Source of the DNA: an uncultured Candidatus Saccharibacteria bacterium
GTDB lineage: Bacteria; Patescibacteriota; Minisyncoccia; UBA6257; UBA9933
Assembly (NCBI GenBank): GCA_964488305.1
Contig: CAZAUC010000001.1
Span: 3,305-37,761, forward strand
Length of the DNA stretch: 34,457 nucleotides
Reading direction: 5' to 3'
The notes below the pieces were generated by a model. The model searched no databases. It was not told the DNA's origin and saw only the letters and a program-made list of their open reading frames with translations. A program made the position numbers and the translations under genes. Shown one piece after another: positions 3,791 through 18,151 of the stretch. How positions within the stretch are numbered: the first letter of the stretch is position 1; every line of letters starts with the position of its first letter.

Positions 3791-4201
3791 ATGACTATTT
3801 TGAACAGATTAAAATCAAAAAAAGATAAAACACAGACGAGAAAGGCGGACAGCTCGGACGAAGCGCGCGGAAAGCAGGGCCCGGCCGTTGTCGCCGAGGG
3901 CGGACAGACAGCTATTCCGCGCCACTCCGCGTTATTGATTAGACAGCCGTGGGTGACGGAAAAGGCGGGTGATTTGTCGGCTTTGGGAAAATACGTTTTC
4001 ATAGCCGACAAGAAAACGAATAAAGCAGAAGCCAAAAGAGCCATTGAATCAATTTACGGCGTAAACGTGGAAAAGGTTAACGTTGTCAATATCAAAGGCA
4101 AGGCAAAGAGATTGGGGCGGAGCTTGGGACGGACTTCAGCCCATAAGAAAATAATTGTGACACTGAAGGAGGGCCAAAAAATTGACATTATGCCAACGTA
4201 A
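3791..4201 (+). CDS. rplW: 50S ribosomal protein L23 with about 45-aa N-terminal extension
   Basis: The C-terminal approximately 90 aa (IRQPWVTEKA...YVFIADKKTNKAEAKRAIESIYGVNVEKVN...KKIIVTL) are L23-like. No internal ATG is available. Confidence 0.85.
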   Translation: MTILNRLKSKKDKTQTRKADSSDEARGKQGPAVVAEGGQTAIPRHSALLIRQPWVTEKAGDLSALGKYVFIADKKTNKAEAKRAIESIYGVNVEKVNVVNIKGKAKRLGRSLGRTSAHKKIIVTLKEGQKIDIMPT

Positions 4202-4327
4202 AAAAATTAAAATTGAAAAATCAAAAATTAAAATGACAATGAAAAATTAAAAATTGGCAAAAGTTAAAATTTTTTCGCCAATGGCGAATACCTAAATTTT
4301 ACATTTTGATATTTACATTTTGAATTT
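4200..4327 (+). repeat. AT-rich MITE-like repeat, copy A (rplW-rplB spacer)
   Basis: About 128 nt, nearly identical to 11756-11888. Contains an internal hairpin (ttcgcc aat ggcgaa) and inverted terminal words (atcaaaatg / cattttgat). Confidence 0.85.
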
Positions 4328-9376: not shown

Positions 9377-9562
9377 ATGGCAAAAAAATCAGTTATTGCG
9401 CGAGCAAAGAAAAAACCAAAATATTCCACACGGGTTGTCCGCCGCTGTTTTAAATGCGGTCGCAAACGCGGCTATCTGGGTGATTTCGGGTTGTGTCGGA
9501 TTTGTTTCAGGGAAATGGCAAGTCGCGGAGAGATACCCGGCGTTAAAAAAGCGTCATGGTAA
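9377..9562 (+). CDS. rpsN: 30S ribosomal protein S14, type Z (zinc-binding)
   Basis: 61 aa with [10 protein letters not shown]...CRICFRE, giving two CxxC pairs. Confidence 0.95.
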
Positions 9563-9769
9563 GGGCTTGGTCCCCGCTAAGCGGGGCTACCAAACCTTTA
9601 CCCAGCCCTTTCTATAAAAAACGTCAGAAAGGGCTGGGTGCTCAGTTTTATCACCCCGCCAAAATTTCAACATAATATAATGGTAGATTTTAAGATAAAA
9701 ATATTTTATTGTTTATCGTACCACCCCGCTAAATTCAAAGAAATTTAGGCGGGGATAAAAATGGCATGT
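9556..9769 (+). repeat. 214-bp structured intergenic element, copy 1 (rpsN-rpsH spacer)
   Basis: Read base by base as identical to 10140-10353. It includes the upstream gene's last sense codon (TGG) and TAA stop codon and the downstream gene's ATG. Confidence 0.95.
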
Positions 9770-10146
9770 ATATACAATTATTAACTCAACTTAAGAATGG
9801 CCAGTTGGTGAAAAAAGAAAGCGTTAAAGCCGCTTATTCCGTGATGGATGAAAAAATTTTAAAATTATTGAAAGAAAATGGTTATATTAAAGATTTTGAA
9901 AAAAAAGGAAGGGGAGCGAAGAAAATATTGGACGTTAAACTGAAATATGACAATGGCCAAGGGGTAATCTCCGGAATTAAATTTATCAGCAAACCGTCGT
10001 GCCGGATTTATATAGGTTATAAAGAAATAAAACCGGTTAAACACGGTTATGGATTACTGATAATTTCAACTCCCCGGGGGATTATAACTAATAAACAGGC
10101 GAGAAAAATGAAGGTCGGCGGCGAGGCATTATTTAAAATATGGTAA
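9766..10146 (+). CDS. rpsH: 30S ribosomal protein S8
   Basis: 126 aa. The C-terminus ...GYGLLIISTPRGIITNKQARKMKVGGEALFKIW is a typical S8 end. Confidence 0.93.
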   Translation: MYIQLLTQLKNGQLVKKESVKAAYSVMDEKILKLLKENGYIKDFEKKGRGAKKILDVKLKYDNGQGVISGIKFISKPSCRIYIGYKEIKPVKHGYGLLIISTPRGIITNKQARKMKVGGEALFKIW

Positions 10147-10353
10147 GGGCTTGGTCCCCGCTAAGCGGGGCTACCAAACCTTTACCCAGCCCTTTCTATA
10201 AAAAACGTCAGAAAGGGCTGGGTGCTCAGTTTTATCACCCCGCCAAAATTTCAACATAATATAATGGTAGATTTTAAGATAAAAATATTTTATTGTTTAT
10301 CGTACCACCCCGCTAAATTCAAAGAAATTTAGGCGGGGATAAAAATGGCATGT
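10140..10353 (+). repeat. 214-bp structured intergenic element, copy 2 (rpsH-rplF spacer)
   Basis: Identical to 9556-9769. Confidence 0.95.
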
Positions 10354-10895
10354 CTAAAATAGGAAAAAAACCAATAATTATTCCCGAAAACGTTGAAGTA
10401 AAAATAAACGGCGGATTTTTGGAATTTAAAGGGAATAACGGAAATTTAAGCGTAAAAATTCCCGTTTATATAAAAGCGGAGATAAAAGAAAAGACGCTTT
10501 CGTTTTCTCCGGAAAATAATTCCAAGCAGGCGCGTGCTAATTGGGGCACAATTAGGTCGCTGGCTTATAACGCTATCGTCGGCTTGACCGAAGGTTTCAA
10601 TAAAAATTTAGAAATTGAAGGAGTCGGTTACCGGGCGAATATGGAAGGAGAAACTCTAGTTTTAAATCTAGGGCTATCTCACCCGATTAAATTTACTCCT
10701 CCCCAAGGCATAAAAATTTCGGTCGAAAAAAACGTTATCAAAATTTCCGGCGTTGACAATGCTTTGGTCGGCCAGGTAGCCGCCAAAATTAGGGCTTTTA
10801 AAAAACCCGAACCCTATAAAGGTAAAGGCATTAGATATCAAGGCGAGGTGGTCAGAAGGAAAGCCGGCAAGAAAGTAGCGGGTACGACTGCCTAA
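10350..10895 (+). CDS. rplF: 50S ribosomal protein L6
   Basis: MSKIGKKPIIIPENVEVKING... and ...KPEPYKGKGIRYQGEVVRRKAGK. Confidence 0.95.
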   Translation: MSKIGKKPIIIPENVEVKINGGFLEFKGNNGNLSVKIPVYIKAEIKEKTLSFSPENNSKQARANWGTIRSLAYNAIVGLTEGFNKNLEIEGVGYRANMEGETLVLNLGLSHPIKFTPPQGIKISVEKNVIKISGVDNALVGQVAAKIRAFKKPEPYKGKGIRYQGEVVRRKAGKKVAGTTA

Positions 10896-11325: not shown

Positions 11326-11808
11326 ATGCGGGAATTAAAAAAACAAAGTGAATTCAAAGAAAAAGTCATTGATTTGAGACGTGTTACGCGGGTGGTGGCA
11401 GGCGGTAAAAGATTTCGTTTTCGGACGACAGTAATTATTGGTGATGAAAAAGGCAGAGTGGGAGTGGGTATTGCCAAGGGAGTTGACGTGGCCCAATCGG
11501 TTGAAAAAGCCAAGGTCAGCGCCAAAAAGAGACTGATGAGGATTCCTCTTAAAGACAGAACCATTCCTTATGAAGTGGAGGCAAAATTCAGCGCCGCCCG
11601 GGTAATGATTAAGCCGGCTCGGAAAGGCCACGGTCTTAAGGCGGGCGGAGCAGTCAGGGCGGTTTTGCTTTTGGCTGGAATAAGAGACGCTACTGCTAAG
11701 TGTTTGGGCGGCACGAAAAATAAACTGACTAATGCGATGGCAACAATGAGAGCGTTAAAAAAATTAAAAATTGAAAAATCAAAAATCAAAATGACAATGA
11801 AAAATTAA
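11326..11808 (+). CDS. rpsE: 30S ribosomal protein S5
   Basis: VIDLRRVTRVVAGGKRFRFRTTVIIGD...GHGLKAGGAVRAVLLLAGI. The last approximately 15 codons lie inside an AT-rich repeat element. Confidence 0.94.
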   Translation: MRELKKQSEFKEKVIDLRRVTRVVAGGKRFRFRTTVIIGDEKGRVGVGIAKGVDVAQSVEKAKVSAKKRLMRIPLKDRTIPYEVEAKFSAARVMIKPARKGHGLKAGGAVRAVLLLAGIRDATAKCLGGTKNKLTNAMATMRALKKLKIEKSKIKMTMKN

Positions 11809-11888
11809 AAATTGGCAAACGTTAAAATATTTTCGCCAATGGCGAAATACCTAAATTTTACATTTTGATATTTACATTTTGAATTTTA
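11756..11888 (+). repeat. AT-rich MITE-like repeat, copy B (rpsE 3' end to rplO)
   Basis: Same element as 4200-4327 apart from a few substitutions and indels. The rpsE stop codon (11806-11808) lies inside it. Confidence 0.85.
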
Positions 11889-16227: not shown

Positions 16228-16505
16228 AAATATCCTATAAAATACAAACGTCTGCTAATGAAGGTTAGACTACGGTTTAACCTCGCGGGCGTCTCATCTT
16301 TGAGATATCGCCAGAGTATCGTTGTTTACGGATAATGGTAGCGTGTGATAAAAGATGGAGATTGAACTTCTTGCTTGTCTTTAGAGGAGATGTTCTGGAT
16401 TTATTTCAGGGTTGCTCCCGAATAAAATACAGGAATGAGAGGATATAGGTCTTTTAAGGCGGTAAACCTCTATTTCCAGTGACAGGGATGAAGATAGGCA
16501 AATAA

Positions 16506-16627
16506 TGTGGATTCGGATGGCCGCCGTGTTGACGTCGGCAACTTCGTTTCGTATGGTCTCTATGTCAGCCACTACTGGGATGACAACAGCAATGACAACA
16601 TCGGTGTCTCGTCCGCTCGGAACTTCT
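16506..16627 (+). repeat. DGR template repeat (TR)
   Basis: Non-coding copy of the VR. It reads GAC AAC AGC AAT GAC AAC where the VR reads GGC CTC AGC AGT GAC GAC. Confidence 0.9.
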
Positions 16628-16686
16628 TTCTCTGTCTGACCTTTTAATACCCTCCTTATTCGGGGAGTATTTCGTTTATCGTTCAG

Positions 16687-17052
16687 TTATTCTTTTGTTG
16701 ATTTAATCCATCCCCCAAGCATTTTTCCGATTTCCTGCAATTTTTCTTGTAGGATGAGATATTTTTTATTATCCAACGATTTAATTTCATTAGATAATCT
16801 AATTAGTATCTTTAATAAACTGATTTTGGCGTCTATTTTCCTAAGATGCGTTAATTTTTCTTGTTTCGGCAAATAAAAAGTTTTTATTGAAAGTTCTAAG
16901 GTGTCTAAAATTAAATTTTCAATCTTTTGACCCAAAGAATACTTCTCTATTTTCGGGAAAAACCTAACGTAGTCGTGAAATAATTTATAGAATTCACAAA
17001 TCTTATGCACCAACGGCGCATCAAATTTAGAAAATCCTGCGGGGGGGGGCAT
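16687..17052 (-). CDS. avd: Avd-like four-helix-bundle accessory protein (23S rRNA IVS protein family)
   Basis: 121 aa. FPKIEKYSLGQKIENLILDTLE...IGKMLGGWIK matches the four-helix-bundle / DGR accessory variability determinant pattern. The start is ATG followed by C9. Confidence 0.8.
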   Translation of the reverse strand: MPPPAGFSKFDAPLVHKICEFYKLFHDYVRFFPKIEKYSLGQKIENLILDTLELSIKTFYLPKQEKLTHLRKIDAKISLLKILIRLSNEIKSLDNKKYLILQEKLQEIGKMLGGWIKSTKE

Positions 17053-17113
17053 TCATAGAAATAAATTTAAAATTCAAAAATCAAAATGTAAAATTTATGA
17101 CCGAATAATTTCA

Positions 17114-17584
17114 TTGGAAAATTTATTTTTAGCTTGGCAAGAATTCCGGCAAGGTAAAAGAAATAAACAGGATGTTCAAGAATTTGAATTCAATTTGGAA
17201 GACAACCTTTTTAACCTTCACCGAGAATTAAAAGCCAAAATATACCGACATTCTAATTATACCGCATTTTCAATATGTGATCCAAAGCCGCGGCGTATTC
17301 ATAAAGCCTGCGTTCGCGACCGAATATTACACCACGCCGTTTTCCGAATTCTATACCAGATTTTTGACAAAAATTTTATTTTTGATTCATATTCGTGCCG
17401 CTTAGCTAAAGGGACGCACCGCGCAGTAAATAGATTAGGAAAATTTTGCCGCCAAATAAGCAAAAACAATCGCCAAAACATTTTTGCCTTGAAATGCGAC
17501 ATTAAAAAGTTTTTTGATTCAGTTAGCCAAAATATTTTATTAGAACTTATTAAGAGCAAAATCCGAGACGAGAACACTTTATGA
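17114..17584 (+). CDS. DGR reverse transcriptase, N-terminal fragment (ends at the in-frame TGA 17582-17584)
   Basis: ENLFLAWQEFRQGKRNK...DPKPRRIHKACVRDRILHHAV...KCDIKKFFDSV correspond to RT motifs 1-3. The TTG start is uncertain, because the frame stays open and conserved-looking (KIYDRIISL) upstream back to 16991. Confidence 0.85.
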   Translation: MENLFLAWQEFRQGKRNKQDVQEFEFNLEDNLFNLHRELKAKIYRHSNYTAFSICDPKPRRIHKACVRDRILHHAVFRILYQIFDKNFIFDSYSCRLAKGTHRAVNRLGKFCRQISKNNRQNIFALKCDIKKFFDSVSQNILLELIKSKIRDENTL

Positions 17585-17632
17585 TTAATTACGAAAATTG
17601 TTAAAAGTTTTGAAAAAACTAGAAATCAAGGT

Positions 17633-18151
17633 TTGCCTTTGGGCAATGTCACCAGCCAATTATTTGCCAATATCTATTTAAATGAATTAGATCAATTTAT
17701 TAAACATAAATTAAAAATTAAATATTATCTTCGCTATTGCGACGATTTCGTGATTTTAAGCGAAAATAAAAAATATTTAATTGACCTAATTCCTTTGATT
17801 AGTAATTTTCTAAAAGATAAATTGAAATTGATGCTTCATCTTGATAAAATAATTATCAGGAAATACCATCAGGGCATTGATTTTCTTGGCTACGTTATAT
17901 TGCCGCATTACCGCGTTCTGCGGACAAAAACAAAAAGGAAGATATTAAGGAAAATTATCGGAAAAAACAGGGATTTTCAAGACAACCTGATATTCGAAGA
18001 ATCTTTTAACCAAACTTTACAATCTTATTTTGGCGTTTTAAAACATTGTCAGGGATATAAGATTAGACAGAGAATCCTATATTGTTTAAAACAACAAAGT
18101 AGTGGACATTCTCAACAAGATAACCTAAAATTAAACATTGATAATAATTAA
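17633..18151 (+). CDS. DGR reverse transcriptase, C-terminal fragment (same frame as 17114-17584)
   Basis: Contains LPLGNVTSQLFANIYL (the DGR-typical SQ motif 4), RYCDDFVIL (YxDD catalytic motif) and GIDFLGY. The frame is open back to 17585, immediately after the TGA. Confidence 0.85.
   Translation: MPLGNVTSQLFANIYLNELDQFIKHKLKIKYYLRYCDDFVILSENKKYLIDLIPLISNFLKDKLKLMLHLDKIIIRKYHQGIDFLGYVILPHYRVLRTKTKRKILRKIIGKNRDFQDNLIFEESFNQTLQSYFGVLKHCQGYKIRQRILYCLKQQSSGHSQQDNLKLNIDNN

Follow-up and report, generated by a model that had tools for sequence, protein, structure and literature searches.

At the junction of two divergent genes of a chromosomal diversity-generating retroelement (DGR), avd and the reverse transcriptase (RT) gene, the DNA analysed here (the window, 34,457 bases) carries a single G9/C9 homopolymer whose length decides which start codons are in frame with the two proteins, and comparable runs recur at the same junction in many related DGRs. 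The best explanation, which we consider reasonably probable, is a slipped-strand contingency switch that would gate the RT and, in most loci, also the long form of Avd. To the broader proposition that, in a large clade of Patescibacteria DGRs, targeted hypermutation is itself phase-variable, with cells stochastically entering and leaving the diversifying state and one slipped base controlling both proteins, we give an even chance.

The element comprises, in this order, a target gene with the variable repeat (VR), the template repeat (TR), avd on the minus strand and the RT gene on the plus strand, and is located between map and a GT2 glycosyltransferase gene, downstream of a ribosomal-protein/secY/adk cluster. 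Its host is a Patescibacteria (CPR) bacterium, and the relatives found are all Patescibacteria (CPR) MAGs. The features referred to below are the following, with positions counted along the window.

15315/15384-16145, plus strand: target gene ORF with the VR at its 3′ end; the VR ends 2 nt before the stop codon
16022-16143, plus strand: VR, delimited by comparison with the TR, at the 3′ end of the target ORF
16506-16627, plus strand: TR, located between avd (antisense) and the target gene; 95% identity with the VR
16687-17052, minus strand: avd at C9, 121 aa, MPPPAGF..., full start MPPPAGFSKFDAPLVHK
16986-16993, plus strand: -10-like box TATAGAAT, 12 nt upstream of the RT ATG; TATAAA/TATAAT in relatives
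17005-17007, plus strand: ancestral RT start codon, in the RT frame only at G8 or G11
17005-17058, plus strand: short ORF at G9, 17 codons, MHQRRIKFRKSCGGGHS, ending at TAG 17056-17058
17041-17049, no strand assigned: G9/C9 homopolymer, Gly-Gly-Gly in the RT frame and Pro-Pro-Pro in Avd; the proposed switch
17054-17056, minus strand: upstream one of the two avd ATGs, which C8 would place in frame (MNAPPAGF...); it corresponds by homology to where Avd begins in sister loci (MSYNAPPNRF...)
17057-17584, plus strand: N-terminal half of the RT in the RT frame, RNKFKIQKSKCKIYDRIISLENLFLAW..., RVT_1, ending at TGA 17582-17584
17585-18151, plus strand: C-terminal half of the RT with LPLGNVTSQ and YCDD, a separate gene call of 170 aa

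The VR differs from the TR at six positions, five of which are TR adenines, the sixth being a C>G difference near the 3′ end. Avd scores 88.2 bits with the NCBIfam profile NF033474 (DivGenRetAVD; cut-off 80), which begins at residue 13, as well as 75.8 bits with Pfam bAvd (cut-off 40). The RT is recognized by Pfam RVT_1 (E=4e-22), a general rather than DGR-specific RT profile, together with the motifs LPLGNVTSQ and YCDD; thousands of CPR RTs adjoining Avd share 50-77% identity with it. The window therefore holds a DGR-type RT, a TR/VR pair with adenine differences, a VR at the 3′ end of the target gene and Avd, but no intact RT ORF and no sign of current diversification. The prototype DGR, that of Bordetella phage BPP-1 (mtd-avd-TR-brt), has avd, TR and brt on a single strand. 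The window element shares with it the GxxxSQ-type RT motif, Avd, the adenine-specific TR/VR differences and the position of the VR at the 3′ end of the target, but departs from it in that avd is divergent from the RT gene and overlaps its 5′ end, and in that the TR lies upstream of the antisense avd, possibly as a transcription unit of its own; we know of no homopolymer or antisense gene overlap described for BPP-1. On the plus strand, the TR is flanked by a promoter-like site (16479-16506) on one side and by a hairpin resembling a terminator, with a T-run (16652-16677), on the other, and the TR may form a separate small transcription unit that is not co-transcribed with the RT. Promoter scanning returned weak consensus matches only, and scans of the window for tRNAs and against Rfam at the gathering threshold gave no match.

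The G9 tract is the sole G or C run of at least six bases in the window, which has a GC content of 40.5% and a next longest G or C run of five. It is preceded on the plus strand by ..AATCCTGC and followed by CATTCATAG..; it is found 36 nt downstream of the RT ATG, immediately follows the avd ATG and is about 1 kb from the VR. Two hallmarks of SSR contingency loci are found here, namely, a slippable and over-represented homopolymer in the 5′ coding region and a geometry in which the length of the tract changes the reading frame. A sequence-only reading of this DNA had proposed that the tract couples both start codons to its own length, and the frame relations on which it relied are borne out. 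On the minus strand, the junction reads ATGAATG followed by C9: at C9, it is the second ATG (17052) that opens the 121-aa avd ORF, at C8 the first one (17056) would be in frame instead, and at C7 or C10 neither is. On the plus strand, the ATG at 17005 opens only the short ORF listed above, and the RT frame is open from about position 16991 and RT-like (KIYDRIISLENLFLAW; longer, ..GGGIHRNKFKIQKSKCKIYDRIISLENLFLAW) upstream of the annotated start, TTG 17114, with no ATG, GTG or TTG preceding that codon. Removal of one G joins the ATG at 17005 to the RT frame, and the resulting fusion is the homologous RT N-terminus (MHQRRIKF..GGG..). The second avd ATG owes its existence to the use of AAT as the Asn codon (AAT GCC), a synonymous variant of the AAC GCC found in sister loci. 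As regards frame geometry, the proposal that one tract sets both the avd start and the availability of an RT ATG stands, with the qualification that, given the two avd ATGs, the tract would gate the RT more than Avd in the window. Avd may depend on the tract less than the RT does also because a TTG or GTG just after the run may serve as its start.

The N-terminus of RT homologues is consistent with this geometry. Gene calls of homologues with up to 77% identity often begin with MHQR(R/H)(I/F)K...GGG..., as the G8 fusion predicts, and in the RT alignment A1 the initial methionine (M1) is invariant, with Q3, G14 and G15 conserved in at least 90% of the sequences. Other homologues are called from MENLFLAW or MAWREF, a gene-caller fallback that recurs in the window as TTG 17114, inside the conserved motif IISLENLFLAW. 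A hidden start created by deletion of T17089 and beginning at ATG 17086 (MKIYDRI..) was considered and dropped, as homologues extend N-terminally through the tract.

The sequence-only reading had left the choice between a phase-variable switch and a homopolymer sequencing error, of which the first is partly supported, whereas the second fails because G9 is reproducible across independent assemblies. Beyond the window, the same length was found in four independent assemblies, SRR9700687, SRR9710542, JGI 3300031360 and JGI 3300031537. Given that an exact look-up of the Avd protein is biased towards G9, it was replaced by look-ups through neighbouring genes; SRR9710542 (L087) and JGI 3300031537 (L089) were retrieved through neighbouring proteins and are hence unbiased by the tract, whereas SRR9700687 and JGI 3300031360 were retrieved through Avd. 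G9 beside an identical CATTCAT flank is found in the closest relative as well (L195, GCA_975960955.1), whose RT likewise needs G8. One contig of the window species (L098, JGI 3300031652), from a strain 99.7% identical, carries G10 with the tract 2 nt from the contig end, a weak sign of length polymorphism within the species. Contigs L089, L090 and L098 start or stop within 5 nt of the tract (17036, 17050 and 17051), and L195 begins 26 nt upstream of it; such ends may reflect length heterogeneity or a drop in coverage at the run. If the true length were G8 and the RT start merely hidden by an error of sequencing or assembly, these contig ends would find a ready explanation, and G runs are indeed error-prone on some platforms. 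Nevertheless, such an error would have to recur in the window, in the four further assemblies and in the closest relative, and independent assemblies of a sister species (see below) agree among themselves on G9 in eight cases and on G7 in five. Furthermore, differences of two to three bases, as among G6, G7 and G9, are untypical of consensus errors, so that we attach hardly any credence to this account.

The comparison with homologous DGR loci to which the sequence-only reading had pointed confirms that the tract is widespread. We fetched 160 related loci, of which 154 were usable, and sought a tract within 130 nt upstream of the conserved RT motif. Avd is divergent from, and immediately upstream of, the RT in nearly all fetched loci, and a run of G7-G11 is present at the avd/RT junction in 86 of the 154 usable ones (seven with G7, five with G8, 36 with G9, 26 with G10 and 12 with G11). 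G/C runs of at least eight bases number 91 in the 798 kb of related loci, and 78 of them are at this junction. In group A, defined as the 68 non-redundant loci without an RT ATG between the tract and the motif, the RT ATG is found ~23-39 nt upstream of the tract and, on the other strand, the Avd ATG lies ~6-25 nt beyond it, with the pattern M-x(2-8)-PP(P)-x(5-9)-P(L/I)(V/I)HK; the 5′ ends of avd and RT therefore overlap in antisense, with the tract inside both. In group B relatives, the RT has its own ATG downstream of the tract. One locus (L026:1800-2003) displays G13, C15 and G11 runs close together at the junction, beside a stretch of N, and may represent an extreme or a misassembled tract.

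The overlap spans ~50-80 nt, and the tract, located at its middle, provides RT codons 13-15 (Gly) and Avd codons 2-5 (Pro). Codons that read as stops in the reverse complement (TTA, CTA and TCA) were counted in the RT segment from the tract to the His codon, where they account for only 2 of 306 codons compared to 6.0% in the rest of the RT (p=4e-6); in the matching segment of Avd, the count is 1 of 521 compared to 8.7% (p=3e-18). Opposite the Avd ATG, the RT invariably uses CAT for its His codon (58 of 58), against a background of 68% elsewhere (p=2e-10). The avd/RT overlap is hence dual-coding, with the tract inside both coding regions. The length class that places RT in frame agrees with that for Avd in 55 of 57 loci, a concordance that geometry partly imposes, given that either gene's ATG lies antisense to a His codon read in frame in its partner; it was accordingly set aside as strong proof in favour of the antisense-stop and CAT tests. 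Relatives with interrupted tracts, L118 and L122 (MNQRRFNFTYSGGK..), L146 and L021, have the same overlapping N-termini, in frame, and the start codons of tract-less relatives abut (-5 to +2 nt).

These observations bear on an arrangement without any overlap, in which Avd would start after the tract (TTG/GTG at ..PLVH..) and the RT downstream of it, the run being a spacer in a shared intergenic region whose length would tune the divergent promoters, much as in phase variation of the classical promoter-located type. Such an arrangement would suit the group B RTs with their downstream ATG, the 111-aa Avd that gene callers start after the tract and the conservation of a -10-like box near the RT ATG. 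However, 30 of the 68 group A loci have no ATG, GTG or TTG in the RT frame upstream of the conserved motif, whereas the avoidance of antisense stops and the invariant CAT show coding constraint on both strands; in addition, the start codons of tract-less relatives abut or overlap, so that promoters are inside the partner gene anyway. We therefore regard the absence of an overlap as very unlikely. The -10-like box itself (16986-16993) is only a candidate RT promoter inside avd, because it is also the antisense of conserved Avd codons.

Sixty-six tract loci could be classified by frame: the tract exceeds the in-frame length by one G in 34, the state of the window, falls short of it by one in 19 and matches it in 13. 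In-frame loci are thus the smallest class, and those with one G too many are more frequent than expected (chi-square p=0.005), a skew that a simple neutral switch does not predict. An RT ATG in frame, found at 13 of these 66 loci, is present in 60 of 68 tract-less loci (Fisher p=3e-16). L018 (G7) and L127 (G9), whose local flanks are nearly identical, lie one base either side of the in-frame length, G8; the pN/pS between their RTs is 0.09 at a pS of 0.31 (pairs with L133 were left out owing to indels). Accordingly, the RT is under purifying selection in out-of-frame lineages. This pattern is difficult to reconcile with a run that is a non-regulatory Gly3/Pro3 linker in two N-terminal tails and with frameshifted copies, that of the window included, that are being lost. 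The window copy does look like a case of decay, with a TGA in its RT and a VR identical in all five contigs that cover it, and the relatives with interrupted tracts are always in frame, as a linker would have it. Yet the RT ORF is uninterrupted in 79 of the 82 tract loci, with the window among the three exceptions, despite an out-of-frame state in 53 of 66; the low pN/pS separates two lineages that are both out of frame; and antisense stops are still avoided in the overlap with ~80% of loci out of frame. An out-of-frame-dominated population, moreover, still diversifies its VR (see below). Finally, non-slippery coding of the same Gly/Pro residues (GGT GGA GGC, cf. GGTGGAGGC) is easily reached, and yet pure runs of 9-11 persist across RTs of only 50-76% identity. 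Taken as a linker in decaying copies, the tract would be poorly explained, and we consider this reading quite unlikely.

The most informative population is that of a sister species with an RT 73% identical to that of the window (proteins P0061 and P0135), which is represented by contigs from many JGI samples. With identical flanks, the tract is G9 in eight assembled contigs, G7 in five, G8 in one and G6 in one, and the third hallmark of SSR contingency loci, length polymorphism in a population or among near-identical genomes, is hence found both in this species (G6-G9) and between L018 and L127. The Avd call changes from 111 aa at G9 to 125 aa at G8, and at G8 the sequence ATG..TGG GGG GGG CTT reads into the RT. 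Cluster members from two other species have alternative N-termini that fit different tract lengths, and a look-up with P0109 for added population replicates provided one usable contig. The VR of the sister species (L184:533-645) shows 17-24 differences between samples, nearly all of which have a VR of their own, and TR adenines account for at least 88% of the VR-TR differences. Given that the VR varies between samples while the remaining ~4 kb are identical, this DGR is active and, because it diversifies while the out-of-frame G9 predominates, the 'off' state must be leaky or rapidly reversible. Identical VR alleles occur on G9 and G7 backgrounds (L184=L199 and L188=L196), an indirect hint at reversible switching. 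In the same population, L190 carries a 1-nt T insertion in avd (position 1318 in L184 coordinates) that cuts the Avd call to 74 aa and may be a second slippage-type variant of the element. In L184-L200, the RT ORF (P0061, 443-465 aa) continues into RuvX (PF03652), resulting in a fused RT-RuvX call, and other members of the P0061 cluster are stand-alone RuvX proteins of 123-124 aa.

The tract might alternatively serve as a throttle, with recoding at the RNA level, by polymerase slippage or ribosomal +1 frameshifting on GGG_G and CCC_C, as the main route of expression. A copy with one G too many would then steadily yield a small in-frame fraction of RT and Avd from a run of about the length of the RNA-DNA hybrid. 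The commonest state is indeed the in-frame length plus one (34/66), a single minus-one correction would mend both genes, and both the diversification of the sister-species VR under a predominant G9 and the purifying selection on the RT in out-of-frame lineages would follow. Programmed slippage and +1 frameshifting are known from dnaX, IS elements and prfB, where, as would be the case here, the full-length protein needs a one-nucleotide change at a slippery run. However, programmed recoding sites normally keep a constant frame relation, whereas the one observed here is inconstant among relatives, with 13 loci in frame, 34 in need of minus one and 19 in need of plus one, and length alleles clearly exist at the DNA level. 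Furthermore, bacterial slippage sites are mostly A/T runs, and slippage by bacterial RNA polymerase is best documented at these rather than at G/C runs. As the main route, recoding thus seems to us rather unlikely.

In the contingency switch that we favour, slipped-strand mispairing during replication would change the run by one or more bases, and each change of length would shift the RT and Avd ORFs relative to their start codons. One length class (G8 or G11 in the window) would place the RT, and normally Avd too, in frame, and the others would place them out of frame; at the G9 of the window, the RT is cut off from its ATG and Avd remains in frame through its second ATG. Because tract length shifts the frame, the tract could act as a heritable and reversible switch that gates mutagenic retrohoming. 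We infer that replication slippage is the source of the length changes, that these can be reversed at a high rate and that the reading frame controls the level of RT protein. The rarity of the in-frame state and the activity of the mostly 'off' sister population might be accounted for in two ways, either by fast switching combined with selection for leaving the mutagenic state, which would lock in a variant, or by RNA-level slippage or +1 frameshifting that would provide a trickle of product.

In the window itself, the tract is not the sole block. The RT contains an in-frame TGA (17582-17584; ..DENTL*LITKIV..) upstream of the catalytic YCDD, which the sequence-only reading had missed. The TGA is found in every contig of the same species that covers the site; this position is Cys in the closest relative and Trp in the majority of homologues. 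An alternative genetic code for this TGA was considered and rejected in favour of the standard one, as 35 long ORFs are intact under table 11 and five of them end in TGA. Among the five window-species contigs covering the VR, which come from different samples and show 1-18 SNPs in the flanks, neither the VR nor any other part of the target gene differs. Given the nonsense codon and the unchanged VR, the window copy of the DGR is probably inactive, and a return to G8 alone would not reactivate it. Consequently, the value of the finding lies in the clade-wide pattern rather than in this particular element.

The tract resembles the poly-G/C contingency loci of Campylobacter jejuni, Neisseria and Haemophilus in being a G/C run of ~8-11 bases in the 5′ coding region within an AT-rich genome, over-represented relative to base composition, with length alleles that coexist and a frame that shifts with a change of one base in either direction. 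It differs from them in that it would gate a hypermutation apparatus (RT and Avd), where theirs act on surface or restriction-modification genes, in that the run is located in two antisense-overlapping genes of uncultured Patescibacteria, and in being known from sequence. There is also a parallel with switchable mutators, in which repeat-mediated on/off switching of mismatch-repair genes raises mutation genome-wide through loss of repair. In both cases, a mutagenic state would be turned on and off by a reversible genetic change, a second-order control of evolvability, but the DGR switch would target the mutagenesis of one gene segment.

To our knowledge, little has been described of how DGRs are regulated. 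The proposed switch would be a contingency locus applied to a hypermutation element by way of a shared antisense overlap. In the full-text literature, we found no report linking DGRs with homopolymers, phase variation or frameshifting, but the main study of CPR DGRs (Paul et al. 2017) was outside this coverage and might contain an earlier mention. Surveys class DGRs as 'active' or 'inactive' from VR diversity only (PMC8144416), and a run that decides the translation of RT and Avd would offer a simple, testable mechanism for many silent-looking DGRs. It would also explain how a lineage stops mutating once it holds a good variant. If the switch is real, leaving the diversifying state would lock in a useful receptor variant, amounting to two-tier bet-hedging, and this would be the earliest description of a genetic on/off (or throttle) control acting on DGR activity. 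The clade also poses a problem for annotation: its RTs are systematically cut short by gene callers, to MENLFLAW.. or MAWREF.., as is Avd, so that pipelines may take working elements for broken ones. Two genes that overlap in antisense at their 5′ ends and share one repeat are, in addition, an unusual case of dual coding.

Two further repeats were observed in the ribosomal-protein region of the window, upstream of the DGR. A perfect direct repeat of 217 nt occurs within the ribosomal-protein cluster at 9556-9772 and 10140-10356, with the copies 584 nt apart, and could be either a genuine duplication or an assembly artefact. An A-rich intergenic repeat of ~89-130 nt, 94-96% identical between its copies (4200-4288 and 11758-11846), ends in a short GC hairpin (TTCGCCAATGGCGAA).
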